Positions 11,173-64,000 of a DNA stretch of 64,000 nucleotides are shown piece by piece. The translations under genes and the position numbers were made by a program. This DNA comes from Methylotenera sp. Lineage in GTDB: Bacteria; Pseudomonadota; Gammaproteobacteria; Burkholderiales; Methylophilaceae. Every line of letters begins with the position of its first letter. Position 1 is the stretch's first letter. The stretch is from contig NZ_JAQSCU010000018.1 of assembly GCF_029945535.1 (NCBI RefSeq), forward strand, positions 117,340-181,339, in the 5' to 3' direction. Under the pieces are notes generated by a model, which ran no database searches, was not told the origin of the DNA, and worked only from the letters and a program-made list of their open reading frames with translations.

Positions 11173-11183
11173 TATCCACCCTG

Positions 11184-12008: not shown

Positions 12009-12203
12009 GCTAGCCGGCTAACTCGATCTTAGCATCGCATAATGCAGGGAACTTCTGCACTTTTCCACGAAGAATATGCAGAAAGACTAACAACATGACG
12101 GAATCAGAAATTTTAACGGCATGAGCATCTCTTTAATCATCAATTGTCATCACTGACTAGCGCGCATCATTTAATAGTCTAAATGCTATAACGCAGAGCG
12201 ATA

Positions 12204-12731
12204 TCAACTCTTATTATTTAGAACTTCTGAAGCACGCACATCAGCCGCCAGTTTATCTAATACGCCGTTGATATATTTATGGCCATCAATCCCGCCATAT
12301 ATCTTAGCTAACTCAACGCCCTCATTAATCACCACTCGATAAGGAATGCTCATATCAAACATTAATTCACAGCCAGAGATTTGTAAAATCGCATGCTCTA
12401 TCGGGCTTAATTCACTGACTTGACGATCAATAAATGCAGCCATTTTTTCATCAAGTTCAGTGGCATGCTCACCAACAGCTTCAAGCAATTGTTTGAAATA
12501 AGCTTCATCTGCCTTTGCATAATCTGGGTCTTCTGCCATATCACGATATACAGCACTCATCTCGGACTGATTCAACATTCCACGATAAACCGCTTTTAAT
12601 ACTAACTCGCGTGATTTTCTGCGATTTTGCCCAGGTTTCTTTTTAACTGATGGTTTTTTTGCTACATTTTTTTGATCAGTTTCTTTTTCTACGACTAGGC
12701 TGGTTAATGAAGCATCATTCTCAGCCATCAT
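12204..12731 (-). CDS. nusB: Transcription antitermination factor NusB (with a basic N-terminal extension)
   Basis: 175-aa ORF with a NusB core ([13 protein letters not shown]...[14 protein letters not shown]...INGVLDK). Its start overlaps the ribH stop by 4 nt. Confidence 0.9.
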
Positions 12732-13177
12732 AGCGATCTAACCAAATTAGCCATTTCAATAGCTACTTGTGCGGCTTCAGCACCTTTAACATGCATACGC
12801 GCAATTGCTTGATCATCATCTTCAGTGGTCAGTACGGCATTAGCCACAGGAATACCTGTGTTAAATTGAACTTCAGAAATACCACGTGCAGATTCATTAG
12901 AAACCACTTCAAAATGGTAAGTCTCACCGCGAATAATGGCACCTAGTGCAATCAAGGCATCAAATTTTTCGCTAATTGCCATGTGTTGCAAAACCAATGG
13001 TGTTTCTAATGCACCTGGTACGGTTGCGATGGTAATATCATCGCTCGCAACGCCTAACTTCAGCAACTCTGCAGTACATGCGCTGAGCAAACCATCACCA
13101 ATATCACTGTTAAATCTTGAAAGGACTACACCGATTTGCAGGCCTGTTCCATCTAAGTTTTTTTCAATTTCTCTCAC
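12728..13177 (-). CDS. ribH: 6,7-dimethyl-8-ribityllumazine synthase
   Basis: 149-aa ORF. Motifs [22 protein letters not shown] and the usual ribH-nusB pairing. Confidence 0.9.
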
Positions 13178-13281
13178 GTTTTATCCTTAAGCGCTACCGC
13201 ACAATTCACAAAACCGTATTTTACCGCATATCGATGATAATGATTTAGTAAAAATACCGTTGTAAGCGCTATACAACTGAT

Positions 13282-14955
13282 TTAATGAAATAATCCCCAA
13301 GCCTTTTGTATGGTGCTCCAAATACCATAACTAATCGGAATTAACACCAAAGTCCATGCAAGCACCACCAACATTGGATGGCTAGCCGATTGCGAGGCGC
13401 TATTCACGACACCATTTGTATTTGTAGCTTCAGATTTTTCATGTGCTAGCTTTCTTACAACTTCTAGCTCCGCGTCTGTCATGTAATATTTTTCAGCCAC
13501 CGGTTTCACTAGAGAGTTCGCGATAAAACCCACCACAAGCAAACCTGCCAGCACCAGAAAAATTGGCGCGTATACTTGGTCAAACGGCACTTTGGCTTCT
13601 AAACGCGTGTCATGCATGTAATTCACCACGACTGGCCCTAAAATACCTGCGGTAGACCACGCAGTAAGTAAGCGCCCATGAATCGCACCCACAAACTGCG
13701 TGCCGAACATATCTGCCAAGTAGGCGGGAATGGTTGCAAAACCACCGCCATACATAGAGGCAATCACACAAAAAGCACCTACAAATAAAGCGAGTGATTT
13801 AAAGCCCGCCACATAAGTCGCAGTGCAATACATGAGTGCGCCCAACACAAAGAAAATATAGTAAGTGCGCTTACGGCCTAATTTATCTGACGAAGTCGCC
13901 CAAGCAAAACGGCCAAAAATATTAAACAATGAAATCAAGCCAACAAAACCTGCGCCTACTGCTGCCGCAGCGGCCGTGAGTGCTTCATCTTTTTTAATAT
14001 CAGCAAAGCCAATACCAGGCTGACCAATCAGTGCACCACCAAAGGTTTCTTGCAGCATAGGCGCAGCCGCGCCAATAATACCAATGCCAGCTGACACGTT
14101 CATACATAACACCAACCACAATAACCAAAACTGCGGTGTTTTATGAGCGTTTTTAAGATGCACGTGCTTGCTGGAAATCATCGCGTTATTTTGTGCTGCT
14201 GGCGGCGCCCAATTGGCAGGTTTCCAGCCAGTTGGCGGCACGCGATAGCTCAGCGAACCCCATAACATGAATACAAAGTAAATCGCCGCTAAGGCAACAA
14301 ATGTTTGCCAAACACCTGGATTGGTTGGCGTTGCAAAGTGCCCCATCAGCTTAGTAGCAAGTGGCGAGCCTATCATCGCACCACCGCCAAAACCCATAAT
14401 CGCCATACCAGTTGCCATACCACGACGATCAGGAAACCATTTAATCAGGGTAGAAACAGGCGAAATATAACCTAAACCAAGACCTATACCGCCGATCACA
14501 CCACTGCCTAGCCACATCAACCATAATTGATGCGCATAAACACCGTACGCCGAAATAAGTAAACCACCGCACCACAACACCATAGAAACTAAACCGGCTT
14601 TGCGAGGGCCTTCACGCTCTAGCCAGCCACCCCATAGCGCAGCCGAGCAACCTAGCAACACAAAAAACAAAGTAAACATCCAACCTAAATCAAACTGCGT
14701 CCAATTACAATCTGTCGCAAATAAAGCCCTTGCCGTGCCTGATAGTTTTTCAGATAAGTTAGTCGCTCCGGCCGCACAGGCTGCTAAGGGCTTACCATCC
14801 ACGCCTATAAGCGCATTGCCTAGTGGCTTCCAAAACACACTAAAACCATACGCCATACCAATGGACAAATGCACTGCCAATGCTGCTGGCGGCACTAGCC
14901 AGCGATTAAAATTTGCATTTGCGGTAATATGCTCTTTAGATAAAAAATTCGCCAT
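13282..14955 (-). CDS. MFS transporter, oxalate/formate antiporter (OFA)-like
   Basis: 557-aa ORF, polytopic with about 12 hydrophobic segments, an OFA-like N-terminus (RWLVPPAALAVHLSIGMAYGFSVF) and a MFS loop motif (DKLGRKRT). Confidence 0.75.
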   Translation of the reverse strand: MANFLSKEHITANANFNRWLVPPAALAVHLSIGMAYGFSVFWKPLGNALIGVDGKPLAACAAGATNLSEKLSGTARALFATDCNWTQFDLGWMFTLFFVLLGCSAALWGGWLEREGPRKAGLVSMVLWCGGLLISAYGVYAHQLWLMWLGSGVIGGIGLGLGYISPVSTLIKWFPDRRGMATGMAIMGFGGGAMIGSPLATKLMGHFATPTNPGVWQTFVALAAIYFVFMLWGSLSYRVPPTGWKPANWAPPAAQNNAMISSKHVHLKNAHKTPQFWLLWLVLCMNVSAGIGIIGAAAPMLQETFGGALIGQPGIGFADIKKDEALTAAAAAVGAGFVGLISLFNIFGRFAWATSSDKLGRKRTYYIFFVLGALMYCTATYVAGFKSLALFVGAFCVIASMYGGGFATIPAYLADMFGTQFVGAIHGRLLTAWSTAGILGPVVVNYMHDTRLEAKVPFDQVYAPIFLVLAGLLVVGFIANSLVKPVAEKYYMTDAELEVVRKLAHEKSEATNTNGVVNSASQSASHPMLVVLAWTLVLIPISYGIWSTIQKAWGLFH

Positions 14956-46943: not shown

Positions 46944-48191
46944 TTATTTAAGCAGTTCATTGATTTCAACATCAACTTTGCTACTATTAGGTTTAACTGC
47001 GGATGACGTGCCTTGTAAGTCACCCGCTTGCGGTTTAGCATCACCAGTTTTAGAGATTCGCGCTACGATGACCACTTCAGCAGCTTGTGAAAGTTTATTC
47101 GCTGGCATTAAGCCTTTACTGTCATCTAAATGATAAGTGTAAGGTAAGTCTTTTACCGTGATGCGTTCAATTGCAAGCGGCATACTTGCGCCTTGTGCGG
47201 CACGTGCATACACAAACACTGTGGCTGCAGGGTCAATATTGGCAGCTAGCGCTGGTGCTAATTTAACTGCTCCGCTGACGCCTTGAGTGGCTTCGGCTGG
47301 TGTTGCTGATTCAGCAGTCGCAGGTGCTTTGACACCAGCTAATCGATATACCTCATCTAGGGATGCTTTTACTTTAGGCGCAATGTCAGAATCGGCTGGC
47401 AATTCTTTTTGCAGGTTCTGCCAATAAACGATGGCTTGTTTGTAATCTTTGCGATTGGTTGCAGCCGCAGCAGCTAGCAACAACGATTTAATATGATGCG
47501 GATCTAACTTTAAAGCCTGATTCACTAATTCTGTTGGTTTACCAGCTAAGTTATAGCCGTTTGATACCGCTAAAGCATCTGCATAATCCGCTAATAATTG
47601 TGCATCATTCGGAATTATTTTTACCGCTTTCTCATAAGCAGGAACGGCATCAGAGGTACGGCCTAGTTCTACATAGGTTCTTGCCAACAGCGCCCAACCT
47701 TTACCGTCGGCCGGGTTTTGCGCTAATTTAGCATTCATTGCTGCAAGCAGAGGCTCTACATCACCAGCCCTTGCGCTCTGCTCTTCTGCACTTTGAGATG
47801 CCTCAATAGCTTGGGCTGCATTTGGCAAACTAATTGCAGCTGGACTACCGATTTTGTAATAAATAAAGATTGAAGCTAATGGTAATACTATTAACAAAAT
47901 CAAAGCCAACATACGGTCTGGCTTGCTGCTGCCCGTTAGCACGTTATTTGTGCCAATTTCATCCAGCATACGTCGCTCAAGTTCAGTTTTAGCAATCTCA
48001 TATTGCGCAGCATCTAGTATGCCATTGGCTTTGTCTTGCTCTATTTCATCAAATTGCTGATGAAAAATTGCACGTTTTTCCGCATTAGCATCTGTAGTAA
48101 CAGTTTTATTAGGCTTTAACAAAGCCGGCAGAATAAGTGCCAGCGTAGCGACTATCATTGCAATTACAACTACCCAAAATAACAACATCAT
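46944..48191 (-). CDS. ccmI: Cytochrome c-type biogenesis protein CcmI (CycH)
   Basis: 415-aa ORF with two N-terminal TM segments, then TPR repeats. Last gene of the ccm operon. Confidence 0.8.
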   Translation of the reverse strand: MMLLFWVVVIAMIVATLALILPALLKPNKTVTTDANAEKRAIFHQQFDEIEQDKANGILDAAQYEIAKTELERRMLDEIGTNNVLTGSSKPDRMLALILLIVLPLASIFIYYKIGSPAAISLPNAAQAIEASQSAEEQSARAGDVEPLLAAMNAKLAQNPADGKGWALLARTYVELGRTSDAVPAYEKAVKIIPNDAQLLADYADALAVSNGYNLAGKPTELVNQALKLDPHHIKSLLLAAAAATNRKDYKQAIVYWQNLQKELPADSDIAPKVKASLDEVYRLAGVKAPATAESATPAEATQGVSGAVKLAPALAANIDPAATVFVYARAAQGASMPLAIERITVKDLPYTYHLDDSKGLMPANKLSQAAEVVIVARISKTGDAKPQAGDLQGTSSAVKPNSSKVDVEINELLK

Positions 48192-48209
48192 GCTTCCTTA
48201 TTTTATGAA

Positions 48210-48671
48210 TTACTTATTGAGTAACTCGCGTACTTTACGGACTTCTTCTTCAGTCAGCGGGACATCACCAGCCATTGTTTGACGTCTGCGCAACTGTAGA
48301 AATAAACTAAAACCGCCAATCAATAGCAAGGCAAATGGCCCTAGCCATAATAAAACGGTGCTCGCTTTAAGCGGCGGGCGATAGCGCACAAAATCGCCAT
48401 AACGCGCGACCAAGTAGTCAATAATCTCTTGGTCGCTCATGCCTTTAGCAGCCATTTCGCGAATCTCTTGCACTAAATCTTGCGCCAGCTCCGCATGCGA
48501 ATCTGCCAACGTCTGGTTTTGACAAACTAGGCAACGTAGCTGGCTAGATAAGCGCTGCACTTGCACCTCAACAGCAGCGTTGTCTTGCAGTGGACGTGCG
48601 TCTTGTGCAACGGCGTTCAATGCGCAGATTAAAAGGCTAGCGGCAAATAAATGTAGTAGTTTATTGAGCAT
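48210..48671 (-). CDS. ccmH: Cytochrome c-type biogenesis protein CcmH (CycL)
   Basis: 153-aa ORF. Signature LRCLVCQNQTLADS (CXXC) and a C-terminal TM segment. Confidence 0.9.
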   Translation of the reverse strand: MLNKLLHLFAASLLICALNAVAQDARPLQDNAAVEVQVQRLSSQLRCLVCQNQTLADSHAELAQDLVQEIREMAAKGMSDQEIIDYLVARYGDFVRYRPPLKASTVLLWLGPFALLLIGGFSLFLQLRRRQTMAGDVPLTEEEVRKVRELLNK

Positions 48672-49198
48672 TATTGAGCCTGCAATTGTTTAACTAATGG
48701 GGCGATTTTATCGCGCAATGCTTCCATAGTGATTGGGCCGATTTGCTTGTAAGCAATCATGCCTTTTTTGTCAATCACATAGGTTTCTGGTACGCCATAA
48801 ACACCATAATCGATGCCCACACGACCATCTGCATCTACTGCGTTAATTGTGTAAGGATTACCAGCCTGATCTAGCCATTGTTGCGCATCTTGATTGTTAT
48901 CTTTGTAATCTAAACCAACAATAGGCACAAAATCTGATTTAGATAGCTCCACTAGAAGTGGGTGCTCATCTTTACAGGCCGCACACCATGATGCCCATGC
49001 GTTAAGTAGCCAGACCTTGCCTAACATTTCTTTAGGAGAGAATGTTTTATCAGCAGCATCTAAACGAGCCAAGTTAAACTGTGGCGCAGGCTTTCCTACT
49101 AATGGCGAAGGCACTTCTCTAGGGTTCAAAAACAAGCCTTTAAAAAGAAAACCAACCACCACTAAAAAAATAATTAACGGTAATAAAGCGCGCTTCAT
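48671..49198 (-). CDS. ccmG: Thiol:disulfide interchange protein CcmG/DsbE
   Basis: 175-aa ORF. WASWCAACKDEHP thioredoxin motif and the GVPETYVID motif. Confidence 0.9.
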   Translation of the reverse strand: MKRALLPLIIFLVVVGFLFKGLFLNPREVPSPLVGKPAPQFNLARLDAADKTFSPKEMLGKVWLLNAWASWCAACKDEHPLLVELSKSDFVPIVGLDYKDNNQDAQQWLDQAGNPYTINAVDADGRVGIDYGVYGVPETYVIDKKGMIAYKQIGPITMEALRDKIAPLVKQLQAQ

Positions 49199-51177
49199 GC
49201 CGTCACCTCGTCCTCAGTCAACTCGCCATTATTTGAGCTTTTATTACGCTTTTTCATACGATAGCGCCTATCAGATAAGGCCAACAAACCGCCTAATGCC
49301 ATCAATGCACAACCCGCCCATATCCATTCCACCATAGGCTTATGATAAATACGTATGCTCCAAGCGCCATCGCTGAGCGGCTCGCCAAGTGATGCATATA
49401 AGTCGTGAATCACCGCTGGACTAATACCAGCTTCAGTCATCGGCATATTAGTAACGGTGTACAGTCTTTTTTCAGTATTGAGTACAGTGCGCTCAACACC
49501 ATTTTTGCTCACGCGAATTTGACCTCTATTTGCGGTGTAATTTGGCCCTTGAATTTCATCTACGCCTATAAAGGTAAAATCAAAACCAGCTAAATGTGCA
49601 ACATCACCAGGTAGCATACGCACAGCGGTTTCTGACTCAAAACCTTTTACTACGGTAACGCCTATAGTAAATACAGCAATGCCTAAATGCGCAATGACCA
49701 TGCCCCACCAAGCGCGCGGAACGGCCTTGATACGTGAAGTTAAAGATTGTCCCACACCGCGTAAACGATGACGCACCATATTGAACGTGGTCGCGATAAT
49801 CCAGAAAGCTAAGAATAAACCTAGGCCTATCATTGGCGTTAAATTGCCTAACCAGAGTGGCAGGATAATGGCTGTGGCAATGCTGACGCCAAAAGCCCAG
49901 CGCAAACGTATGGCTAGTTCAGGTAATGAAGCATTCTTCCAGCTGGCTATTGGACCAACCCCCATCAAGAACAATGCAGGCGTCATGAGTGGCGCAAATA
50001 CTGCATCAAAATAAGGAGGGCCTACAGAGATTTTGCCGTAATTTAGTGCATCCAAGAACAACGGATAAAGCGTGCCGAGTAATACCGATATCGCCGCGAC
50101 GGCTAACAAAACGTTATTAGCGAGCAGAAAACTTTCGCGTGAAACTACACTGAACTTACCGCCACGACCAACCGTTGGTGCGCGCCAAGCAAATAACGCC
50201 AATGAACCGCCAATTACAATCACTAGGAACGCTAAAATAAATACGCCGCGTCTTGGGTCTGTGGCAAAAGCATGTACAGAAGTCAGTACACCTGAACGCA
50301 CTAAGAATGTTCCGAGTAGGCTTAAAGAGAATGCGCAAATCGCGAGTAATACTGTCCAAGCTTTAAAGCTGCCGCGTTTTTCAGTGACCGCTAGCGAGTG
50401 AATAAGCGCAGTACCCACTAGCCATGGCATGAATGATGCGTTTTCTACCGCATCCCAAAACCACCAACCGCCCCAACCTAGCTCGTAATACGCCCAGTTA
50501 CTACCACCTAAAATACCCAAAGTTAAGAACACCCATGCCAAAGTGGTCCAAGGGCGCGACCAGCGCGCCCAAGCGGCATCTAGCTGACCGCCAATCAAAG
50601 CGGCAATGGCAAAAGCAAATGCCACTGAAAAGCCAACATAACCCATATAAAGCATAGGTGGATGAAAGATCATGCCCGGATCTTGCAACAAAGGATTTAA
50701 ATCACGGCCATCTAAAGCTGCTGGAATTAAGCGATCAAATGGGTTTGAAACCATGAGCATGAACAGTAAAAAGCCTACGCTGATTAAGCCCATGACACCC
50801 AAAATGCGCGCACGCATATCATCTGGCAGATGCTTGGAGAATGCACTTACTGCCACAGTCCAAATACTTAATATCAATGCCCAAAGTAACAGTGACCCTT
50901 CATGACCGCCCCACACCGCTGCAATACGAAATTGTATAGGCAATTGTGAGTTTGAATTAGAGGCAACATACATGACCGAATAGTCTTTGGTTGCAAAAGC
51001 ATAAGCCAAGCAAATGAACGAAAATGCAATGAGCAAAAATTGTACGCGTGCGAGCGGTCTAGCTAGCCCCATCCAAGCCACATTGCCACGAGCAGCACCG
51101 ATGATAGGCAAGCTACCTAGCGTGAGCGCCACCAGCAAGGCGAGAATGAGAGAAAAATGGCCAATTTCAGGAATCAC
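49195..51177 (-). CDS. ccmF: Cytochrome c-type biogenesis haem lyase subunit CcmF
   Basis: 660-aa polytopic ORF. WWD-type motif WGGWWFWDAVENAS. Confidence 0.95.
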   Translation of the reverse strand: MIPEIGHFSLILALLVALTLGSLPIIGAARGNVAWMGLARPLARVQFLLIAFSFICLAYAFATKDYSVMYVASNSNSQLPIQFRIAAVWGGHEGSLLLWALILSIWTVAVSAFSKHLPDDMRARILGVMGLISVGFLLFMLMVSNPFDRLIPAALDGRDLNPLLQDPGMIFHPPMLYMGYVGFSVAFAFAIAALIGGQLDAAWARWSRPWTTLAWVFLTLGILGGSNWAYYELGWGGWWFWDAVENASFMPWLVGTALIHSLAVTEKRGSFKAWTVLLAICAFSLSLLGTFLVRSGVLTSVHAFATDPRRGVFILAFLVIVIGGSLALFAWRAPTVGRGGKFSVVSRESFLLANNVLLAVAAISVLLGTLYPLFLDALNYGKISVGPPYFDAVFAPLMTPALFLMGVGPIASWKNASLPELAIRLRWAFGVSIATAIILPLWLGNLTPMIGLGLFLAFWIIATTFNMVRHRLRGVGQSLTSRIKAVPRAWWGMVIAHLGIAVFTIGVTVVKGFESETAVRMLPGDVAHLAGFDFTFIGVDEIQGPNYTANRGQIRVSKNGVERTVLNTEKRLYTVTNMPMTEAGISPAVIHDLYASLGEPLSDGAWSIRIYHKPMVEWIWAGCALMALGGLLALSDRRYRMKKRNKSSNNGELTEDEVTA

Positions 51178-51332
51178 GTTAATATCCTTAGTGAGTTTTA
51201 ACTATAGTGAATTTAATCTAACTATTTATTGAATTGCGGGTGTTTTGATAATTGCATTGAACAGCTTTCTGCAGGTCAGCTTTTAAACCGACAAAGTCAG
51301 ACTAAAGCCCGACCTACATTTAACAAGCTGTA

Positions 51333-51791
51333 CTATTTCGGCATCACTACCGTTTTACCTTGTTCTTGAGCACGTTTTAGCGCCTCTGCAGCTTCTGGCG
51401 GCATATAGTTTTCATCATGTTTAGCAAGCACTTCACTAGCCATAAATATGCCATCTGGACCTAATTTACCTTGCGCTACCACGCCTTTACCTTCTTTAAA
51501 CAAATCCGGTAAAACACCCTTGTAAACAACTGGTACAGTTTTAGCGGTATCTGTAATAGCAAAATGCACGGTTAAACCATCATCTTGGCGCTTTAAACTA
51601 TCTTTTACTACTAAGCCACCAATACGGAAGCCAGTACCGTGCGGCACTTCACCTTTATCTACTTGCGTTGGTGTGTAGAAGAACACCATATTGCTTTGGA
51701 AAGCATTCAAAATAAGCATTGCGGCTAAGCCTAGCAATGCCAAACCAATCGCTATTAAAATAAATCGTTTATGTCGTGCTTTTATAGCCAT
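51333..51791 (-). CDS. ccmE: Haem chaperone CcmE
   Basis: I prefer the start at 51791 (MAIKARHKRFILIAIGLALLG); the track start at 51872 would overlap ccmD. Haem-binding region VLAKHDENYMPPE. Confidence 0.9.
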   Translation of the reverse strand: MAIKARHKRFILIAIGLALLGLAAMLILNAFQSNMVFFYTPTQVDKGEVPHGTGFRIGGLVVKDSLKRQDDGLTVHFAITDTAKTVPVVYKGVLPDLFKEGKGVVAQGKLGPDGIFMASEVLAKHDENYMPPEAAEALKRAQEQGKTVVMPK

Positions 51792-51792
51792 A

Positions 51793-51957
51793 TTAACCTT
51801 GTGCCAAAATTTTAGATAAACGTAATGCAGCTTTGCTACGTTTGCGCAGAGATATGACTTCCCAAGCGACACAAAGTGCCGTTAAGCCAAAAGAAAACCA
51901 CACATAAAATGCGTAGCCACCCATATTAAAAAATGCTGACCAACTTGCCCATTGCAT
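51793..51957 (-). CDS. ccmD: Haem exporter protein CcmD (54 aa; absent from the ORF track)
   Basis: My translation: MQWASWSAFFNMGGYAFYVWFSFGLTALCVAWEVISLRKRSKAALRLSKILAQG. A single TM segment followed by a basic tail. Its ATG shares one nt with the ccmC stop, and its stop lies 1 nt before the ccmE ATG. Confidence 0.8.
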   Translation of the reverse strand: MQWASWSAFFNMGGYAFYVWFSFGLTALCVAWEVISLRKRSKAALRLSKILAQG

Positions 51958-52706
51958 TATAATTTGCCTCCTGCTGTGACTGACAGCTCTTTAACCCAAT
52001 CCGATGAACGCTCACGTTCCAGCATAATGCAGCGTACGCGCATCAATGCAACCGCCACGGTATACATCCAAAAAGCTAAAGCCATCAGCAGCATGCCCAT
52101 CAACATAGTCGCCGCCATTTTCGGCGCCGCACCCATATTGATGCTGGAACCTTGATGCAAGGTATTCCACCATTTGACTGAAAAATAAATAATCGGCACG
52201 TTCACCACACCAACCAGCGCTAACAAAGCCCCCGCTCTATCTGCGCGACGCGGGTCATCAATTGACGCTTGCAAAGCAATAAAGCCAAGATACAAAAACA
52301 GTAATATAAGCTCAGAGGTTAAACGGGCGTCCCACACCCACCATGCGCCCCACATGGGCTTGCCCCACAGCGAACCTGTGACCAAAGCAAGTAAGGTAAA
52401 TATTGCCCCGGTTGGCGCTAAAGCTTGCGCCATCATGGCAGATAATCGCGCATTAAGCGCTAGCCCTAACGCCGCCCAACCAGCCATGACGATATAGATC
52501 ACCATGGACATCCAAGCAGCGGGCACATGGACAAAGATGATGCGATACGCTTCACCTTGTTGAAAATCAGTAGGGGCAACGGCAAAGCTAATGTACAAAC
52601 CTGCTATAGCGAAAATTGTGGCTAACCAAACAAACCATGGAATCATTTTTCCAGCTAATGGATAGAAAGTTTGTGGTGATGAATATTTAAACCAATTAAT
52701 GCTCAT
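51957..52706 (-). CDS. ccmC: Haem exporter protein CcmC
   Basis: 249-aa ORF. WWD motif WGAWWVWDARLTS. Confidence 0.95.
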   Translation of the reverse strand: MSINWFKYSSPQTFYPLAGKMIPWFVWLATIFAIAGLYISFAVAPTDFQQGEAYRIIFVHVPAAWMSMVIYIVMAGWAALGLALNARLSAMMAQALAPTGAIFTLLALVTGSLWGKPMWGAWWVWDARLTSELILLFLYLGFIALQASIDDPRRADRAGALLALVGVVNVPIIYFSVKWWNTLHQGSSINMGAAPKMAATMLMGMLLMALAFWMYTVAVALMRVRCIMLERERSSDWVKELSVTAGGKL

Positions 52707-52826
52707 AATTTATTTGCTCAAATTGCTCTGTAATTGCATTCAAATTGCACGGTAATGTTACTGTAATTCACGACTGCATTTCACGGCTGTCATTCACAGT
52801 GGCGCATATTTTACTCTACATGCGGT

Positions 52827-53495
52827 TTATTCTACAGAGATACGTAATGCAGCAGCTGTAGCTAATGGTGCTAACACCAAAGCAAGTAAAGAACAGGCAG
52901 CCAACAATGAAAGATGCGCCTGTGCACTCATGCCATGCTGACTTGCCGCGACTGCTCCAGCGCCAAAAATCAACACTGGAATGTATAAAGGTAACACTAA
53001 TAACGCCACCAACAACCCGCTACCACGAACGCCTAATGTGAGAGCAGCACCAATTGCGCCAATTAAACTCAATGCTGGCGTGCCTAACAATAAAGAAATA
53101 ATAAGCACAAATAACGCGTCGTTCGGTAAGGCATACTGCAAACCAATCAATGGCGCTAACAATACCACTGGCAAACCGCAAACCAGCCAATGAGCCAACA
53201 CCTTAGCCGTGACCAATAACGTCAATGGCTGCGGCGCGAGTAACATCTGTTCTAAACTACCATCAGCAAAATCTGCGGCAAATAAACGTGTAAGTGAAAG
53301 CATGCCAGCCAATAATGCCGCTACCCATAAAACACCTGGTGCGATGCTGCTCAGCACAGTAGGCTCTGGACCAATGCCAAGCGGAAATAAGCTGGAAACA
53401 ATCAAGAAGAAAAATAGCGTTGTCGCAACATCTGAACGTCTACGGAAAGCTAATAAAAGATCGCGCTTCAGCACGGTCATCCATGCACCGTTCAT
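52827..53495 (-). CDS. ccmB: Haem exporter membrane protein CcmB
   Basis: 222-aa six-TM ORF in the canonical position, overlapping the ccmA stop by 4 nt. Confidence 0.9.
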   Translation of the reverse strand: MNGAWMTVLKRDLLLAFRRRSDVATTLFFFLIVSSLFPLGIGPEPTVLSSIAPGVLWVAALLAGMLSLTRLFAADFADGSLEQMLLAPQPLTLLVTAKVLAHWLVCGLPVVLLAPLIGLQYALPNDALFVLIISLLLGTPALSLIGAIGAALTLGVRGSGLLVALLVLPLYIPVLIFGAGAVAASQHGMSAQAHLSLLAACSLLALVLAPLATAAALRISVE

Positions 53496-54109
53496 TCACT
53501 TAACCTCAAAGTTTGAGTGGACTGTGCATGAATTGCGACATCTTGATGAGTGGTAAGAATTGCCATTCCGCCACTGGATAGATGCTCCCCTAACTTTGCA
53601 GCAAGTATGCTAACTGACGCAATATCTAAGGCAGCAAAGGGTTCATCCAATATCCATAATTTACCTTCTGACAACCAAAGCTTAGCTAGCGTCACTCGTC
53701 TTTTTTGCCCCTGCGATAGCACGCGTGCTGGTAAATTTGCACAACGCTCGATTCCAATCGCTGCTAATGCCGCCAATGCTTTATCTTCTGTCACTTCATT
53801 ACCTGCGGCACGTGCGCTCATGGTTAAATTTTCTAGCGCAGTAAGATCATCTTTAAGCCCGTTCAAATGGCCAATATAAGTGAGATTGGACAAATAGCTT
53901 TCAGATTCTTCTTTGATAGGTTTTTTATTCCAGAAAACTGTTCCACTTTCTGGCAGCATCAATCCGCACAGCATGCGCAATAAACTACTTTTGCCACTAC
54001 CGTTCTCGCCCAGCACATAGAGCAGGCCGCCTGCATTAAGCTCAAACTCTACATTTTTAAACAGCAAGCGATCACCGCGCAAGCATGCTAACCCTTGCGT
54101 TAGTAACAT
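53492..54109 (-). CDS. ccmA: Haem exporter ATP-binding protein CcmA
   Basis: 205-aa ORF. Walker A GENGSGKS, ABC signature LSQGQKRR, Walker B LWILDEP. Confidence 0.95.
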   Translation of the reverse strand: MLLTQGLACLRGDRLLFKNVEFELNAGGLLYVLGENGSGKSSLLRMLCGLMLPESGTVFWNKKPIKEESESYLSNLTYIGHLNGLKDDLTALENLTMSARAAGNEVTEDKALAALAAIGIERCANLPARVLSQGQKRRVTLAKLWLSEGKLWILDEPFAALDIASVSILAAKLGEHLSSGGMAILTTHQDVAIHAQSTQTLRLSE

Positions 54110-56388
54110 TAAATGTCCAAACGGTAGCCGATAAAACTGAAATCGCGGAATGTGCGGGTGTGCCCTGGGTTAAAGCTGTCTGAATTATTTTCATTAGTCA
54201 CTTCTAAACCTACCTCTGCTTCTATAGTCGCCTTTTCGCGCAGGCGGTAGCTTGCTCTGACTGTCGGGCCAACAACATATTGCACGGAAGCTGGGTCCGA
54301 CTCAATTCTGAGTAACTTCACCGAGCTATCCAAGCGCCATTTATCACGAGGCACCATTACGTTAGTTAACACTACTGACTGAACACGGCTTGTTGGGCCA
54401 TCAATATAACTTACACTAATAATCGAAGTATCATCTTTAAATAGCGTGTCTAAACCTACTGCCTGCACATGGTAAGTATATGTATTACCACCTGTAAATG
54501 AATTACGCAGATTTTGTCTATCGAGATCACTTAAAAAAGTACCATTGTCTGCCGCTGTTTTTTCAGCAAGTGCTATTGCGCCATTACTGGCATTGGCACT
54601 ACCAGTTACCCTACTCATTTGAACATCTCCGCCCAATTGCCAGCGAGGCGTCACTTGACGTGTTGCACCTACCAAAAACAAGCTGGTATCCAATGTTTGG
54701 TTGATTGCATAATCTCTTAATCCTGACGCAGTTAAAGTATTTGGGGCGCTTATAGTACTACCTATTCGCAATGCCTGACGCAGCGATGTAGGCGTTGTTG
54801 GGTAAAACGTTTGATTTTGAAACGCGGGATCAAATAACGCATTAATCAACTGTAACACTGGCGACTTGCGATTTTCCATCAGGATATTATAACTGGTACC
54901 TTCTGCCGTTTGCCAGTTACCTTGCAACATAGCAGTATTTAAACGATTAAAATAAGTATCATAATCTACCACTGAGTATAACGATTTTCCCATATCAAAG
55001 TAACGCAACTCACCACCTACGCCACGCCTGTCAATTAAGTCATCGACCCTTTGCTCAATGAAAAATGTATTACCACTCCATTTTTCATTAATCGGACCAA
55101 TATCCAGATTGATTCCATAAAAATGCCGTCTGTAATCAATATTATATTCGTCCAATGCACCTGCAACAAAGTTCAATTTGTATTGCGGCGATAATCCATA
55201 ACGGAATAATCCACCATCAAAGCGACCTAAAACACCGCCAGAATTACCATTCTGTCTACCGATGCGTGTCATAAAGTCTGAGTCTTTATTCTGCAATTCA
55301 ACATAAGCAGCTTGCAACCTATTGCGATCTGCCTTATTCGGCAGAAAGTCCATGGTTTGCGTATTACGGATTACAATTCGGTTATCCCACTCGTTTTGGC
55401 GGAATCGGGCAGTAAGGTCTATCGCACTCACTAATTGAGACTGATCATGCGTTCCCGTATTTTTGCCAGAGCCTGGATAATTATGGCTGTGCGCATCATA
55501 GTAATACTGATTCCAGCTACCATAGACCGTATTTTCGTGGATATCTCGAATTGGCTTTTTGGTTTTAGCCGCATCCGCACTGCTAAATTTATTTGAACCC
55601 TCTAACGCGGTTAAACGTTGGCGAACGCGTGTAGCGCCTTCACCCTCTGGATAAAGCTTAAGATATGTTTCATACTCTGCTTTTGCCTTAGACATTTCAC
55701 CCATTTTTTCACGCGAATTAGCAATTAGCTCTTGGGCATCTTGTGAATGAGTATTGCTTGGCAAACCGAGTACAGCATTCAGTAATTGCACTGCTTTGGG
55801 GTAATCACCAACACCTCTTGCTACGCGCGCCTCAGAAACCAACTTTGCGGCATAATCGTTATCACTCATATCAGCAGGCTTAGCTGGAATTTCACCTTGA
55901 GGGCCGTGATCAATGACAGGTGCTACTGGCGACTCAACAGCTGGTTCTGCAATGACTTCTGCCTTGTCTTTTGGCACATGAATCACTATACCGCGACCAC
56001 TATTGTCTGGCGTAACAGTGAATTTGACTGGGCTTTTAAATCGCACACCTATGCTATTAGAATTTTGCTCAGGATAGTTAACGGTAAAACGAGGTAAGAG
56101 ATTTGTTTTGGGTGAATTTCGAAATTCACGCTGATTTGATAGCGTTTCTTTTGAGAACTGAGGAAACTCTAAAAAGATTTGAATGCGGGAAGTTTCAGTA
56201 TTTAAGGGTGCATGCCTTAAATAACGCACTTGCGTTAAGAACTCAATATGAATTTCCGTCTCGTTTTGAGCTTGTACGATTTCAACTTTATCAAGAAGTT
56301 TATCTGCATGTGCCAACGAAGGCACAAGTGAACAAACAACCGCTAAAACAAGGTAAAAGCTTTTGGATAAATTCACATTAACCCTCAT
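54109..56388 (-). CDS. Large secreted protein: N-terminal beta-rich module, TPR segment and a ~480-aa putative outer-membrane beta-barrel. Translationally coupled to ccmA.
   Basis: The ORF is open to 56445, but that is a TTG start. I prefer the ATG at 56388 (MRVNVNLSKSFYLVLAVVCSLVPSLAHA) or the GTG at 56376, which is preceded by GAGGG. TPR-like YPKAVQLLNAVLGL...AKAEYETYLKLYPEGEG. The C-terminal two thirds have alternating-hydrophobic, Gly/Tyr/Asn-rich strands. The TAA stop overlaps the ccmA ATG (TAATG). Confidence 0.75.
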   Translation of the reverse strand: MRVNVNLSKSFYLVLAVVCSLVPSLAHADKLLDKVEIVQAQNETEIHIEFLTQVRYLRHAPLNTETSRIQIFLEFPQFSKETLSNQREFRNSPKTNLLPRFTVNYPEQNSNSIGVRFKSPVKFTVTPDNSGRGIVIHVPKDKAEVIAEPAVESPVAPVIDHGPQGEIPAKPADMSDNDYAAKLVSEARVARGVGDYPKAVQLLNAVLGLPSNTHSQDAQELIANSREKMGEMSKAKAEYETYLKLYPEGEGATRVRQRLTALEGSNKFSSADAAKTKKPIRDIHENTVYGSWNQYYYDAHSHNYPGSGKNTGTHDQSQLVSAIDLTARFRQNEWDNRIVIRNTQTMDFLPNKADRNRLQAAYVELQNKDSDFMTRIGRQNGNSGGVLGRFDGGLFRYGLSPQYKLNFVAGALDEYNIDYRRHFYGINLDIGPINEKWSGNTFFIEQRVDDLIDRRGVGGELRYFDMGKSLYSVVDYDTYFNRLNTAMLQGNWQTAEGTSYNILMENRKSPVLQLINALFDPAFQNQTFYPTTPTSLRQALRIGSTISAPNTLTASGLRDYAINQTLDTSLFLVGATRQVTPRWQLGGDVQMSRVTGSANASNGAIALAEKTAADNGTFLSDLDRQNLRNSFTGGNTYTYHVQAVGLDTLFKDDTSIISVSYIDGPTSRVQSVVLTNVMVPRDKWRLDSSVKLLRIESDPASVQYVVGPTVRASYRLREKATIEAEVGLEVTNENNSDSFNPGHTRTFRDFSFIGYRLDI

Positions 56389-56416
56389 TTCTAAGGCATT
56401 AATTGCATATAGCCAA

Positions 56417-56445
56417 ATAGTATTTATTTTTTTCATAAAAGTCAA
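56417..56445 (-). promoter_or_regulatory. Candidate sigma-70 promoter for the OMP-ccm transcription unit
   Basis: Minus-strand TTGACT (56445-56440), a 17-nt spacer, then TACTAT (56422-56417). It sits about 30 nt upstream of the preferred ATG at 56388. Confidence 0.45.
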
Positions 56446-59851: not shown

Positions 59852-60685
59852 ATGACAAAGAACGCTGAAATTTCTTCTGATAACCCTATAAAGGAAAAAG
59901 TACTCACCGCTTTACAACGTGTAATGAAGCCGCTCGTCAGGCTGGCGCTGACGCAAGGCATTAACTATCAAATGCTGCTAGAAACATTGAAAATAGTCTT
60001 TGTACAGGTGGCTGAAGAAGAATTTAAATTATCGCAACGTGAACAAACTGATAGTCGAATCAGCTTACTTACGGGCTTGCATCGTAAAGATGTGCATCGA
60101 TTACGCGACTTACCTGAAAGCACACAAACAACATCTCTTGTTACTTTGGGCTCTCAATTGGTTGGCTTGTGGATTAGTGACGCCGATTTTGTTGATGCCC
60201 AAGGCAAACCTAAGCCTTTAGCGCGCTTAGCAAGTGTAGGTGGTAACGTCTCTTTTGATCGCCTTGTTGCGCGCGTTAGCAAAGACATTCGCGCTAGACC
60301 TGTGCTTGATGAGTGGCTAAGAATTGGTGTTGCCTACATAGATGATCAAGATCGCGTATGTTTGAATAACGAAGCATTTGTGCCAAGCGAAGGCTTTGAA
60401 GAGAAATTATTTTTCTTCCAACAAAATATACATGACCATGCCGCTGCAACGGCGCATAATTTAATGAACTTAACTCCCCCTATGTTAGAACGTTGCGTCT
60501 ATTACGACAGTCTGACATTAGAAGCTATTAGTGAATTAAAAGTGCTTGCAGAAAATCAAGGGATGACTGCGTTAAAGGCTGTCAATGCACGCGCCATTGA
60601 ATTGCAGACTGAATCTCAAAACAATGCTGATGCAAACCAGCGCTTTACCTATGCATTGTATTTTTACCATGTGCAGAAGACTTAA
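59852..60685 (+). CDS. Cytoplasmic protein of unknown function with a possible helix-turn-helix segment (resembles DUF6502-type proteins from memory, unverified)
   Basis: 277-aa ORF with no signal peptide. HTH-like stretch QTDSRISLLTGLHRKDVHRLR. Divergent from the giant cytochrome gene. No obvious SD, and TATAAT lies only 8 nt upstream of the ATG. Confidence 0.6.
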   Translation: MTKNAEISSDNPIKEKVLTALQRVMKPLVRLALTQGINYQMLLETLKIVFVQVAEEEFKLSQREQTDSRISLLTGLHRKDVHRLRDLPESTQTTSLVTLGSQLVGLWISDADFVDAQGKPKPLARLASVGGNVSFDRLVARVSKDIRARPVLDEWLRIGVAYIDDQDRVCLNNEAFVPSEGFEEKLFFFQQNIHDHAAATAHNLMNLTPPMLERCVYYDSLTLEAISELKVLAENQGMTALKAVNARAIELQTESQNNADANQRFTYALYFYHVQKT

Positions 60686-60803
60686 GCGCTTCATTGCCAC
60701 ATGCGTTCTACCGCAGAAAAACAGTTCGAATTGACTAGATGAGTATGTTGCAACTCACTCCAAGTGCCAATTCAAACTTAAGTTAACTGAAGGATTAGTT
60801 AAT

Positions 60804-62207
60804 ATGAAAACTTACATTCACAACTTCATCGCTATCATCTTGACGATATTGTCGTTATCGGCAAATGCCAACCCTTGTGACGATGGCGGTATAGGCGGCA
60901 CTGGCATGCCTTTAAGTCTTGGTACTGGCGGCATTGGTGGCACTGGCAACACTTCTGACAAATCTACAGGCATTGGTGGAACAGGCATTACCAGCGCGCA
61001 AGAAGGCATAGGCGGGACTGGCGTAACTAACAAAGGTATTGGTGGCACTGGTGTAGAAGCTGATAGTGGTATCGGCGGCACCGGTATTGTTGGCATCATC
61101 ACAGGGTTTGGCAGTATCTGTGTGAACGGATTAGAAGTGCATTACTACAATGACACTCCTATGGATTTAGATGGTAAAAAAATCAGCAGTGATGCACTCG
61201 CTGTTGGTCAAGTAGTAGCTGTAAAGGCGCACGGAAAAGAACAGTCACTGATCGCTCATGAAATACATGCTTTCTATCAAGTGACTGGGCCGATTACTGC
61301 AATTGATCTTGTCGCTAAAAAAATAAAAGTCATGGACCAATCTATCAATGCAAATGACACTCAAATCAACAATATGAAAATCGGGCAATGGCTGAGTGTA
61401 AGCGGCTTACGCAGTGAAGATGGCAGTATTGAAGCCAGTCGTATCGATCAATCTACTGAGCGTAAAATTGCCAAATTAGTTGGTAATTTAAGTATGCAGG
61501 GCAATAATGCCTATATAGGTGGCACTAAAATAGACGGCATATCCAACATGAATAACAACCCAAATGCTGACGCTCGTTTAACAGGCGTTTGGGATGGTAG
61601 CACCTTTAATGTTAAGGATATGAAACCTGGGCCAGTAAGTGACTTGCTACAAAAGGTCGAAGTTTTCCACTTGCAAGGCATCGCTGGTAGTAATGTGACC
61701 AATGGGAAAGTCAAGCTTTCTGGGCAAACTGTAGCCGTGCCAGCTAATATCAAAATTCTTGGTAATAGCTCAACTAGCATAGCAGGCAAACCTATTGTCG
61801 CGCACGGCCAAGTAAAAGATGGCAAGGCAAAAGCGCAATCAATTGAATTGCGTCCGATGAAAACGGAGGTCAAAAATCGTATGGACCGTCCGGTAAATTC
61901 ATCCCAATCTAATTCATCAGGGGAATCAGGCGAAAATACTAGCGCGAATGCAGTTAAAGCTACGGCCTCAAATAAAAGTGAAATTAAGCCTAAGAAAGCT
62001 GACAAAACCGAATTGTCTGACCGTGTTTATAAGCAAGAGCAAGTTGAAAAAGTAGAAAGGGCTGAGTCCATAGAGAGAGTCGAGACAGTTGAAAGGGTTG
62101 AGAGAGTGGAAACGCCGGAGAGAGTCGAGAAAGTTGAAAAGGTGGAGAGGGTAGAAACGCCTGATAGAGTCGAAAAAGTTGAAAGAGTGGAGAAGCGAGA
62201 TGACTAA
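60804..62207 (+). CDS. Secreted GIGGTG-repeat protein with a beta-rich core and a charged V-E-[KRT] repeat tail (resembles DUF5666-type proteins from memory, unverified)
   Basis: 467-aa ORF. Signal peptide MKTYIHNFIAIILTILSLSANA. Six GIGGTG copies between residues 29 and 94, then ITGFGSICVNG. The C-terminal 55 aa are VEKVERAESIERVETVERVERVETPERVEKVEKVERVETPDRVEKVERVEKRDD. Confidence 0.75.
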   Translation: MKTYIHNFIAIILTILSLSANANPCDDGGIGGTGMPLSLGTGGIGGTGNTSDKSTGIGGTGITSAQEGIGGTGVTNKGIGGTGVEADSGIGGTGIVGIITGFGSICVNGLEVHYYNDTPMDLDGKKISSDALAVGQVVAVKAHGKEQSLIAHEIHAFYQVTGPITAIDLVAKKIKVMDQSINANDTQINNMKIGQWLSVSGLRSEDGSIEASRIDQSTERKIAKLVGNLSMQGNNAYIGGTKIDGISNMNNNPNADARLTGVWDGSTFNVKDMKPGPVSDLLQKVEVFHLQGIAGSNVTNGKVKLSGQTVAVPANIKILGNSSTSIAGKPIVAHGQVKDGKAKAQSIELRPMKTEVKNRMDRPVNSSQSNSSGESGENTSANAVKATASNKSEIKPKKADKTELSDRVYKQEQVEKVERAESIERVETVERVERVETPERVEKVEKVERVETPDRVEKVERVEKRDD

Positions 62208-62302
62208 ATTTTCTTCAAAGCATCGCATCGATGCAGCCAACTTAACTTGAAGCACTATTCATTAAAAAATTTAATCGTAGATGTACACAACAAAAATAAA
62301 TT

Positions 62303-63091
62303 ATGAACTACAAAATTAAACTCAAAATAACTAACCTACTCATTTCTACAATTAGCCTTTTGCCTTTAGCAAGTTATGCCGAAGGTAAATTAAGTTTAAC
62401 TAGCGGCGTAGATTACAGCACTGGGAAATATGGACAATCTGAAGCGACAGACATTACTTACATTCCTTTTATTGCCAAGTATGATACTGGAAACACCACG
62501 CTAAAGCTGACTGTACCTTGGGTAAAAATAACTGGTCCAGGCGATGTGGTCGGCGGGAATACACCAATTGTAATAGGTTCGTCCAATCGCCCTATCACTA
62601 CTGAATCCGGCTTAGGTGATATTGTATTTTCTGCTACTCAAACCATTGCACAATTCGGTGAGAGTAATCCGCTACTATTAGAATTAACAGGTAAAGTTAA
62701 ATTTGCTACCGCCTCCAGTTCAAAGGGTTTAGGTACTGGCGAAAACGACTACACCGTAGAACTTGGTGCTTACAAATCAATCAATACCGCAGCAACTTTG
62801 TTTGGGGATATTGGCTATAAAAAACTAGGTGACCCCTCTGGCATTAATTTAAATAATGTTTGGTACGGATCAGTAGGGTTCGTTTATCAACTCAGCCCGG
62901 CCAACAGCGCTGGCATGATGGTGGATATTAGACAAGCAACAATGAATACCTCCCAGCCGTTAAGGGAACTCACGGTATTTTTAACGCATAAATTTAATGC
63001 AAATTACAAATTGCAAACTTACCTTACCACTGGCAATACTGATGCCAGCACTGACTTGGCTGGCGGTCTAATGTTAGGCTGGATGTTCTAA
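62303..63091 (+). CDS. Small outer-membrane beta-barrel (transporter of the MetA-pathway / phenol-degradation-like OMP family, by motif)
   Basis: 262-aa ORF. Signal peptide (LLPLASYA), SGLGDIVFSA motif typical of that family, alternating strands, C-terminal GLMLGWMF with terminal Phe. Confidence 0.65.
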   Translation: MNYKIKLKITNLLISTISLLPLASYAEGKLSLTSGVDYSTGKYGQSEATDITYIPFIAKYDTGNTTLKLTVPWVKITGPGDVVGGNTPIVIGSSNRPITTESGLGDIVFSATQTIAQFGESNPLLLELTGKVKFATASSSKGLGTGENDYTVELGAYKSINTAATLFGDIGYKKLGDPSGINLNNVWYGSVGFVYQLSPANSAGMMVDIRQATMNTSQPLRELTVFLTHKFNANYKLQTYLTTGNTDASTDLAGGLMLGWMF

Positions 63092-63155: not shown

Positions 63156-64000
63156 CTACCTAGACATCCCAGCACCCATTTTCAGAGCTGCCCAAGTGTT
63201 AGAAACGTGGCAACGTTCACACTGACGACCAAAACCTCCATCATGAACATCGTCTGATGAGTGACAATCCCCACACGTAACTGAGATCAGCAGCTTATGT
63301 CCTTTAGATGGGGTTCTGTGACACTCATAACAGCCTATGCCTTTATGACCACCATCAAGCTTAAATTTAGTTTTTTTATCATGATCAAAATCCCAAGCTT
63401 TCCAGTCTCGTGCGTTATGGCACGTTTCGCATGCGGGGCCTAACTTAAGCTTATGCACATCGTCTTTTGTGTGGCAGCTGATACATTCTGACTTCGCCGC
63501 TTTAAACTCTGCTGTCAGATGGCAACTCTTACAATCTACTTTAAAGTGTTTACCCAACAAAGGAAACTTCGATTTTGCATGATCAAATTTAGCATCCTTC
63601 CAAGATTTCGCGTTATGGCAATCTTCGCACTTATCACCCTCTTGCCCCTTATGCTTATCATCAGACTTATGACAACTAATACAGGTGCTTTTTACCTTAC
63701 CTCTGTATAGGTTAGCTTTGTGGCAAGAATCACATTTAGTCGCTCTGTGTTTATCAAGCAATTTATACTTGGTGTCACGGTCATGATCAAAAATGAGCGT
63801 TTTCCAGGTTTTTTCTATGTGACAGGTTTCACATTTTTGATCATAACGACCCTTATGACCTTTACTATCATCATCTTTCTTGTGGCATGAGTAGCAATCA
63901 GTTTTCAGGTTTTGCCCATAAAGCTTGCCTTTATGACACTCAACACATTTAGTGTCCTTATGCTTTTCCTTAAGTGGATATTTAGTATCACGAGTATGGT
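63156..64000 (-). CDS. Poly-c7-type multihaem cytochrome, C-terminal ~281 codons (N-terminus beyond the window end)
   Basis: The track ORF 63156-63761 starts at an internal TTG. My translation shows the frame stays open to 64000 (HTRDTKYPLKEKHKDTKCVECHKGKLYGQNLKTDCYSCHKKDDDSKGHKGRYDQKCETCHIEKTWKTLIFDHDRDTKYKLLDKH...). There are 12 CXXCH motifs in four ~66-70-aa trihaem modules. Confidence 0.85.
   Translation of the reverse strand, partial: HTRDTKYPLKEKHKDTKCVECHKGKLYGQNLKTDCYSCHKKDDDSKGHKGRYDQKCETCHIEKTWKTLIFDHDRDTKYKLLDKHRATKCDSCHKANLYRGKVKSTCISCHKSDDKHKGQEGDKCEDCHNAKSWKDAKFDHAKSKFPLLGKHFKVDCKSCHLTAEFKAAKSECISCHTKDDVHKLKLGPACETCHNARDWKAWDFDHDKKTKFKLDGGHKGIGCYECHRTPSKGHKLLISVTCGDCHSSDDVHDGGFGRQCERCHVSNTWAALKMGAGMSR

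Follow-up and report, generated by a model that had tools for sequence, protein, structure and literature searches.

A large secreted protein is encoded on the minus strand of a 64,000-nucleotide stretch of Methylotenera sp. DNA (contig NZ_JAQSCU010000018.1, positions 117,340 to 181,339; the whole stretch is called the window below), between the gene of a 40-haem cytochrome c and the cytochrome c maturation genes ccmA to ccmI. To which system does this protein belong, and why is its gene joined to a ccm operon? The original prediction, made from the sequence alone, had known of no canonical ccm operon beginning with an outer-membrane protein, had placed its gene at the head of the ccm operon and had proposed it as a sheath or exporter of the giant cytochrome. 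That account is partly supported: the features it described are real and the kind of role was guessed rightly, but the protein most probably belongs to a family that had already been proposed. With a probability of roughly 0.7, the protein is the barrel, or "porin", that a porin-cytochrome conduit of the PCC3 type has in the outer membrane.

Composition of the gene cluster

PCC3 was defined by He et al. (2017, PMC5566968) as a porin, a giant "extracellular" cytochrome, a "periplasmic" cytochrome and an inner-membrane protein. In that study the "extracellular" cytochrome has a median of 34 haems and 22-39 amino acids per haem (median 26), the "periplasmic" cytochrome has a median of 21 haems, and the inner-membrane protein has about 300 residues with an SGXXG and two WX3HX13H motifs. 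Methylotenera versatilis 301 is among the PCC3 holders, and the porin of L. cholodnii was predicted with 22 transmembrane strands (PMC5566968).

The cytochrome encoded next to the barrel gene has 1033 residues for its 40 haems, or 25.8 amino acids per haem, which is within the PCC3 range of 22-39. It matches Cytochrome_C7 (1.4e-57), contains MtrC/MtrF-like and DmsE-like segments, and carries an ordinary signal peptide with no lipobox. PCC3 is only partly contained in the window, whose right end cuts the gene of a second cytochrome (about 27 haems) and which does not reach the inner-membrane partner. Full-length syntenic relatives of the second cytochrome have 27 haems (loci L001, L004 and L020; L and P numbers denote loci and proteins used in the comparison). 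The gene order in these three loci is inner-membrane gene, 27-haem cytochrome, a divergent trio of genes, a 33-45-haem cytochrome and the barrel, the first two lying close together. The set of barrel, 27-haem cytochrome, 26-45-haem cytochrome and inner-membrane protein (two WX3HX13H motifs and SGxxG) is found in L001, L004, L020, L050 and L027, and by its motifs the inner-membrane gene was recognised in L001, L004, L020, L027, L050, L076, L089, L094-L098 and L109.

In Gallionella metagenome-assembled genomes (MAGs), a homologous barrel ends clusters whose cytochromes have 21 or 24 plus 26, 28 or 29 haems, and a Ca. Thiodiazotropha cluster combines a 21-haem and a 68-haem cytochrome with the barrel. 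These counts match the PCC3 table for Gallionellaceae (PMC9900912) and resemble the symbiont examples of PMC5566968. Homology between the window barrel and the barrels of the Gallionella clusters extends over the full length; the proteins P0104 and P0105 are 49-50% identical to the window protein, and the Gallionella barrel of L089 is about 33% identical to P0104 and P0105. PCC3 membership of the barrel rests on this homology to the Gallionella cluster barrels (about 33% identity) and on cluster composition, that is, a barrel gene beside multihaem cytochrome genes, a low ratio of amino acids to haem, a second cytochrome and, in relatives, the inner-membrane protein. The protein is not without precedent, since the PCC3 porin family to which it would belong is known for Methylotenera through M. 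versatilis 301 (PMC5566968).

Large PCC3 cytochromes directly before a family barrel also reach greater sizes, with 60 haems in 1500 residues in a Burkholderiales MAG (L076 5465-9967) and 68 haems in 1650 residues in Ca. Thiodiazotropha (L109 4056-9008).

The barrel family and its genomic context

A word-index search gave 801 homologues of the barrel protein, and the family comprises at least 1474 clusters at 50% identity. Its members are named "TPR repeat protein", "hypothetical" or "BamD" in their sources, TPR standing for tetratricopeptide repeat. One full-length member, P0183 (NCBI MBI3902151.1), is named "outer membrane protein assembly factor BamD", a name that the TPR segment has most likely prompted in error.

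Genome context was examined in the closest 80 loci with barrel homologues in GTDB genomes, together with Gallionella-type loci from further scans. The closest 80 stem mostly from Methylotenera, Methylophilus, other Methylophilaceae and Nitrospira, with a few from Burkholderiales and Acidiferrobacterales, and the window DNA itself is about 93% identical to a Methylotenera MAG. Where upstream sequence is available, the gene directly ahead of the barrel gene is in essentially all related loci one for a large multihaem cytochrome, which upholds the earlier view of the protein as a partner of the giant cytochrome. More broadly, all inspected loci with upstream sequence, whether from Beta- or Gammaproteobacteria or from Nitrospirota, have a c-type cytochrome gene adjoining the barrel gene.

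A paralogous subfamily of the barrel, 33% identical to the window protein, was seen in Gallionella and Nitrosomonadales MAGs (L082-L091, around positions 8000-14300). There the barrel is preceded by cytochromes of 1, 2 or 4 haems, with no giant cytochrome, and followed by a two-component system of response regulator and histidine kinase; L082 also has a DUF4382 protein ahead of the barrel.

Predicted structure of the barrel protein

An AlphaFold2 model was built from a 39-sequence alignment, with residues numbered from the ATG at 56388. Its mean pLDDT (predicted local distance difference test) is 79.5, with about 90 within the barrel, and it begins with a signal peptide and a beta domain of nine strands (residues 32-139), from which a disordered linker leads to five TPR-like helices (176-267) and a 22-strand barrel (284-758). 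The model agrees with the earlier description, in which the protein is secreted and combines a beta module and a TPR-like segment in the periplasm with a large barrel in the outer membrane, and the membrane barrel was itself the point that structure prediction had been proposed to check. Two long helical loops of the barrel (residues ~510-565 and 596-633) are predicted by strand parity to be extracellular. The C terminus, GYRWDF in the family, resembles the usual outer-membrane beta-signal.

Modelled alone, the N-terminal beta domain gave a pLDDT of 88.6. In a Foldseek search its best template modelling (TM) scores were 0.52 with PilQ B2 and 0.45 with AmiC, both of them structures that contain AMIN domains, at E values of 0.05-0.3 and none below 0.01, and small heat-shock and CS-domain sandwiches scored as well. 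The domain gave no Pfam match at E values up to 10 and none in a PDB sequence search, so that the suggested likeness to AMIN domains is a lead only. For the helical segment, sequence and profile searches of the PDB returned TPR proteins only, the family profile matching a designed consensus TPR (E=1e-5) and the TPR of CpoB (E=2.7e-5), and Pfam TPR_6 gave 25.0 bits on the single sequence, just below its cut-off of 26.3. By this similarity of the family profile to TPR hairpins, residues 176-267 are classed as a TPR-like segment.

When the whole protein and each module were searched against Pfam and NCBIfam, no family scored above cut-off; sub-threshold matches were limited to TPR- and BamD-like families around residues 175-260. 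Against the PDB, Foldseek matched the whole model to generic outer-membrane barrels only, ushers and porins, at TM scores of at most 0.35, with the FimD/PapC usher pores on top (E=2e-11). No Pfam or NCBIfam match to MtrB/PioB appeared even at E values up to 10 on the barrel alone, the family profile matched none of MtrB, BcsC, PgaA and AlgE in the PDB, and AlgE stood at rank 40 in the Foldseek listing (TM 0.23). The relatives that had been suggested for comparison, BcsC/PgaA/PelB-like exporters and MtrB/PioB porins, thus showed no similarity by Pfam, NCBIfam, PDB profile search or Foldseek. Membership of the MtrB/PioB families was rejected on the missing profile match and the 22 strands of the model, and membership of the BcsC/PgaA-type exporters on the missing profile match, the five helices and the 22 strands.

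Start codon and junction with ccmA

The minus-strand open reading frame (ORF) 54109..56445 was confirmed. It ends in FIGYRLDI-TAA, and in the minus-strand sequence TAATG at 54111-54107 the last A of the stop codon is the A of the ccmA ATG, as had been described. The TTG at 56445, given as the start in the original prediction, is probably over-extended. A GAGGG Shine-Dalgarno sequence at 56386-56382 lies 5 nucleotides ahead of the GTG at 56376, this start agrees with the MNxSK... N termini of homologues, and it yields 755 residues, the length of the 89% identical homologue P0002. GTG 56376 is most likely the start codon. The gene is probably not the first cistron either. The 40-haem cytochrome gene lies 148 nucleotides upstream on the same strand and a scan found no terminator-like site between the two, so the unit probably begins with the cytochrome gene rather than with the barrel gene. 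RNA folding of the spacer was not above chance (z = -0.08).

Conservation of the link to the ccm operon

Among the 80 closest loci, about 50 have ccmA-I immediately after the barrel gene, a comparison with relatives that the earlier reading had asked for. The distance from barrel stop to ccmA start could be measured in 49 loci of Methylophilaceae and Nitrospira and lies between -13 and +4 nucleotides in 43 of them, and this spacing is kept across the two phyla while the barrels are only 35-40% identical. A 1-nucleotide overlap by itself is commonplace, but because the spacing holds in 43/49 loci of two phyla, the tight coupling to ccmA is conservation and not chance. For comparison, a CcmC-based sample (not a census) of 80 other, mostly betaproteobacterial, ccm loci was used, and a barrel gene upstream of ccm was found in none of the 61 generic loci with at least 2.5 kb of upstream sequence among the matches listed.

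In several loci (L001, L028, L043, L062) the barrel is followed only by ccmI, with fragments of ccmB, ccmC or ccmH. These loci point to barrel-ccmA-I as the ancestral order, from which the other ccm genes were lost more than once while ccmI was spared. The remnants between barrel and ccmI, of ccmH, ccmC or ccmB, were located at L001 12297-12452 and L028 12403-12612, and others at L043 12558-12629 and L062 6084-6530, where the locus ends before any ccmI; they appear to be footprints of ccmA-H deletions.

No description of a ccm fusion of the PCC3 barrel was found in the PCC3 papers searched, PMC5566968 and PMC9900912 among them, and literature searches gave no report of PCC3-like systems in Nitrospira or of a PCC3-ccm linkage. 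The additions to the known PCC3 are the conserved ccm fusion, the spread to Nitrospira, the retention of ccmI after loss of ccmA-H, and a defined periplasmic arm.

Phylogeny of the linked ccm genes

A neighbour-joining tree of CcmB, CcmC and CcmF was calculated with 60 bootstrap replicates; it is a distance tree on sampled loci. Among these loci the PCC3-linked ccm operons of Methylophilaceae and Nitrospira form one clade (60/60 replicates), separate from other Betaproteobacteria including Nitrosomonas and Nitrosospira. The Nitrospira operons are sister to the window's Methylotenera group in 50/60 replicates. L131 and L191, Methylotenera ccm loci without a barrel upstream, fall inside the same clade, so the ccm operon of the window may simply be the housekeeping operon of the lineage with PCC3 placed ahead of it.

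In a clade B comammox genome, the Nitrospira RCB MAG, a ccm operon is followed by haoA and haoB (L149, 4994-15701; haoB E=1.9e-116), and this hao-linked ccm nests within the PCC3-linked ccm group of Nitrospira. A second locus of this MAG, L034, is a separate PCC3 cluster that includes a ccmI. A "duplicated CcmI" has been reported for clade B comammox (10.1101/138586), which the ccmI of L034, in addition to the ccm operon of L149, may explain.

It is proposed only tentatively, and on balance doubtfully, that PCC3 and ccm together form a self-contained, transferable cassette for extracellular electron transfer with its own System I cytochrome maturation genes. If this were true, a Methylophilaceae-like cassette would have delivered System I to Nitrospira, and the hao-linked ccm of comammox would descend from that cassette and not from ammonia-oxidising Betaproteobacteria. 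The CcmI left beside the barrel after loss of ccmA-H would then be a dedicated chaperone for giant apocytochromes and would account for the "duplicated CcmI" of clade B comammox. Should the ccm tree hold, the account of where comammox Nitrospira got their cytochrome maturation would change.

Alternative explanations

The assignment of the barrel to PCC3 leaves room for a different role beside the cytochrome. The barrel might mainly be a secretion or assembly channel that threads or exports the folded 40-haem cytochrome to the surface of the cell, as TPR-barrel exporters or ushers do, its TPR arm handing over the substrate, with no permanent sheath being formed. Such a channel would suit the modelled architecture of a TPR arm joined to a barrel, and the best Foldseek matches of that model are the FimD/PapC ushers (E=2e-11), which are 24-strand translocation barrels; ordinary porins score similarly, however, and the TM scores to the ushers are low (at most 0.35). 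The signal peptide of the 40-haem cytochrome, ordinary and without lipobox, leaves its route to the surface unexplained, and type II secretion genes are absent from the annotated genes of the cluster, to which that observation applies. No profile matches to the BcsC, PgaA, PelB or AlgE families were obtained, though, and export and sheathing are compatible with each other; a channel of this kind in place of a sheath is judged improbable. It is very improbable indeed that the protein is no more than a neighbour of cytochrome genes, be it a porin for general diffusion or an assembly factor of the BamD type. The name "BamD" given by NCBI to one family member goes together with weak YfiO/BamD matches over the TPR segment, but TIGR03302 (BamD) reaches 21 bits against a cut-off of 81.4 and covers residues 173-255 only, and BamD is a lipoprotein without a barrel whereas the window protein has 22 barrel strands. 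BamD was rejected on the low score and the barrel. Foldseek matches many general porins; yet a c-type cytochrome gene is adjacent in every inspected locus with upstream sequence, on which ground a general porin unrelated to cytochromes was likewise rejected.

The link to ccm, for its part, could be one of position: a housekeeping ccm operon with its own promoter in the 3' end of the barrel gene, upstream of which PCC3 landed. Methanol oxidation in methylotrophs depends on cytochromes that require Ccm, the presence of the barrel-less Methylotenera operons L131 and L191 in the same clade would fit a vertically inherited ccm of the family, and a weak -35/-10 match lies at 54498-54469. That match is no better than chance, with 20 promoter matches found against 25.7 expected, and an internal promoter can coexist with read-through. 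Nor would a positional link readily account for a spacing of -13 to +4 nucleotides in 43/49 loci of two phyla with barrels down to 35% identity, for a junction that travelled with the module into Nitrospira, or for a ccmI that stayed beside the barrel after ccmA-H were lost. A merely positional link is possible, if rather unlikely.

Several considerations weigh against the PCC3 assignment and the conduit built on it. The PCC3 components are without experimental test (PMC12442390), and "porin", "extracellular" and "periplasmic" are all predictions. Membership was judged by cluster composition and by way of the Gallionella barrels, which stood in for the reference porins of L. cholodnii and S. 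lithotrophicus ES-1, and the AlphaFold2 model covers the barrel protein alone. The Gallionella paralogue beside 1-4-haem cytochromes means that the barrel is not tied to giant cytochromes only. Co-transcription of barrel and ccm is a prediction from gene arrangement, and promoter and terminator scans stood at chance level (the 20 promoter matches against 25.7 expected).

Features of the window and neighbouring genes

Table 1. Features of the barrel gene, its product and the adjoining genes (positions in the window)
Feature	Position	Strand	Basis or remark
Probable PCC3-type outer-membrane barrel gene, ~755 aa	54109..56376	-	GTG 56376 start; TAA stop 54111-54109
In-frame alternative starts upstream of GTG 56376	ATG 56388, TTG 56445	-	
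Sec-type signal peptide MNLSKSFYLVLAVVCSLVPSLAHA/DK	56305..56376	-	Sequence reading; cleavage AHA/DK; model helix 6-25; homologues with same N-terminal pattern
Predicted periplasmic beta-sandwich of nine strands, only tentatively AMIN-like, with a conserved RYxRHxP motif	55972..56295	-	AlphaFold2
TPR-like five-helix module	55588..55863	-	AlphaFold2 helices 176-267 and profile matches
Predicted 22-strand outer-membrane beta-barrel	54115..55539	-	AlphaFold2, pLDDT ~90
40-haem cytochrome c, putative large ("extracellular") PCC3 cytochrome, 1033 aa	56525..59626	-	40 CXXCH
Putative second ("periplasmic") PCC3 cytochrome, C-terminal 281 residues, cut by window end	63156..64000	-	12 CXXCH
Divergent trio	59852..63091	+	
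 DUF6502 protein	59852-60685	+	
 Secreted DUF5666 protein	60804-62207	+	
 262-aa protein	62303-63091	+	No Pfam match
ccmA	53492..54109	-	NCBIfam equivalog 2e-76; ATG overlaps barrel stop by 1 nucleotide
ccmB-ccmI block	46944..53495	-	
 ccmB	52827-53495	-	
 ccmC	51957-52706	-	
 ccmD	51793-51957	-	
 ccmE	~51333-51791	-	
 ccmF	49195-51177	-	
 ccmG	48671-49198	-	
 ccmH	48210-48671	-	
 ccmI	46944-48191	-	

With 54 residues, ccmD was too short for a 60-residue ORF filter and was missed. It overlaps its neighbours at both ends, with its ATG on the stop of ccmC and its stop on the likely ATG of ccmE near 51791, and the 179-residue GTG ORF listed for ccmE is therefore over-extended.

The divergent trio that separates the two cytochrome genes travels with PCC3 in Methylophilaceae, as seen by synteny in L001, L004, L008, L020 and others. 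DUF6502 also occurs close to the clusters of Nitrospira and to some of the Gallionella type.

A protein of about 435 residues is conserved beside the PCC3 inner-membrane gene (L001 1-987, L020 1-334, L050 2449-3753, L089 2602-3909, L032 19249-20562), and in Nitrospira its gene comes right after ccmI. It has an N-terminal anchor-like hydrophobic segment, 4Fe-4S dicluster ferredoxin domains and an FAD/pyridine-nucleotide-disulphide oxidoreductase domain, and it looks like a fifth PCC3 component; no mention of it was found in the PCC3 literature consulted. In the organism of the window the gene would fall just past the right end. In Gallionella PCC3 clusters, the gene after the barrel is not a ccm gene but one for a lipoprotein of about 490 residues (L089 12349-13815, L094 12329-13819, L097 12405-13865), and the L089 lipoprotein matches Kelch-repeat beta-propeller families.

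Proposed function

By analogy with MtrB around MtrA and following the model of He et al. (2017), the barrel would sheathe a haem wire and so let electrons cross the outer membrane. The published PCC3 model likewise makes the barrel a sheath for the giant cytochrome, the role that had been guessed from the sequence. For the inner-membrane protein, two b-haems and a link to the quinone pool are proposed; the 27-haem cytochrome would span the periplasm and the 40-haem cytochrome would extend the wire outward, so that electrons could pass from the quinone pool through the di-haem-b protein and the 27-haem and 40-haem cytochromes to the outside. The periplasmic arm of TPR segment and beta-sandwich might dock the periplasmic cytochrome, anchor the barrel at the cell-wall layer, or both.

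With the genes of the 40-haem cytochrome and the barrel ahead of ccmA-I, and a junction spaced for termination-reinitiation, expression of the conduit may be tied to haem attachment. The coupling could match the capacity for haem attachment, and perhaps a specialised CcmI, to a complex that needs about 67 covalent haems. CcmI is the apocytochrome-binding subunit, and it is probably the part of ccm most closely tied to PCC3, because it is retained where ccmA-H are lost.

PCC3 ranks among the main candidate systems by which bacteria might exchange electrons with minerals or humic substances, and its presence in methylotrophs and nitrifiers, which are not known for such exchange, is puzzling. The ccm fusion yields a prediction of co-expression that can be addressed with existing metatranscriptomes and a candidate dedicated chaperone, CcmI, for the assembly of 27-68-haem proteins. 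The barrel-ccmA junction offers an evolutionary marker for movement of the cassette between phyla, and the periplasmic arm a defined target for mutagenesis once PCC3 has become experimentally tractable.

Comparison with known systems

Like the AMIN domains of PilQ and AmiC, the N-terminal module is a beta-sandwich of about 110 residues at the periplasmic N terminus of an outer-membrane channel (TM 0.52 and 0.45); unlike them it has no Pfam AMIN match, its Foldseek E values are 0.05-0.3, and heat-shock and CS sandwiches do equally well. The domain order resembles that of BcsC, PgaA and PelB/AlgK-AlgE, in which a TPR region in the periplasm comes before an outer-membrane barrel at the C terminus. 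The window protein differs from these polysaccharide exporters in having about 2.5 TPR hairpins where they have many and 22 strands where BcsC/PgaA/PelB/AlgE-type barrels have 16-18, in the missing profile match (AlgE at rank 40, TM 0.23), and in its genomic partners, which are cytochromes and not glycosyltransferases.

The predicted logic, in which a barrel and its partner multihaem cytochromes carry electrons through the outer membrane, is that of MtrCAB, MtoAB and PioAB, and the MtrC/MtrF-like and DmsE-like segments of the 40-haem protein are a further likeness. Unlike in those systems, the barrel has no sequence match to the MtrB/PioB families, and the cytochromes have 27 and 40 haems against 10. 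MtrB is a 26-strand barrel as opposed to the 22 strands predicted here, and it is not known to have a periplasmic TPR arm such as is predicted for the window barrel.

From PCC3 as described, the locus is set apart by the 1-nucleotide overlap that joins the barrel gene to ccmA-I, by the divergent DUF6502/DUF5666 trio that splits the Methylotenera cluster, by the predicted periplasmic arm of beta-sandwich and TPR, which is not discussed in PMC5566968 or PMC9900912, and by occurrence of the cluster in Nitrospira as well. With PCC3 (PMC5566968, PMC9900912) it has in common a barrel gene beside a giant cytochrome of 22-39 amino acids per haem, a periplasmic cytochrome with 21-27 haems, an inner-membrane protein that has about 300 residues with SGxxG and two WX3HX13H motifs, a barrel of 22 predicted strands as in the L. 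cholodnii porin, and homology of that barrel to those of Gallionella clusters with published haem counts.

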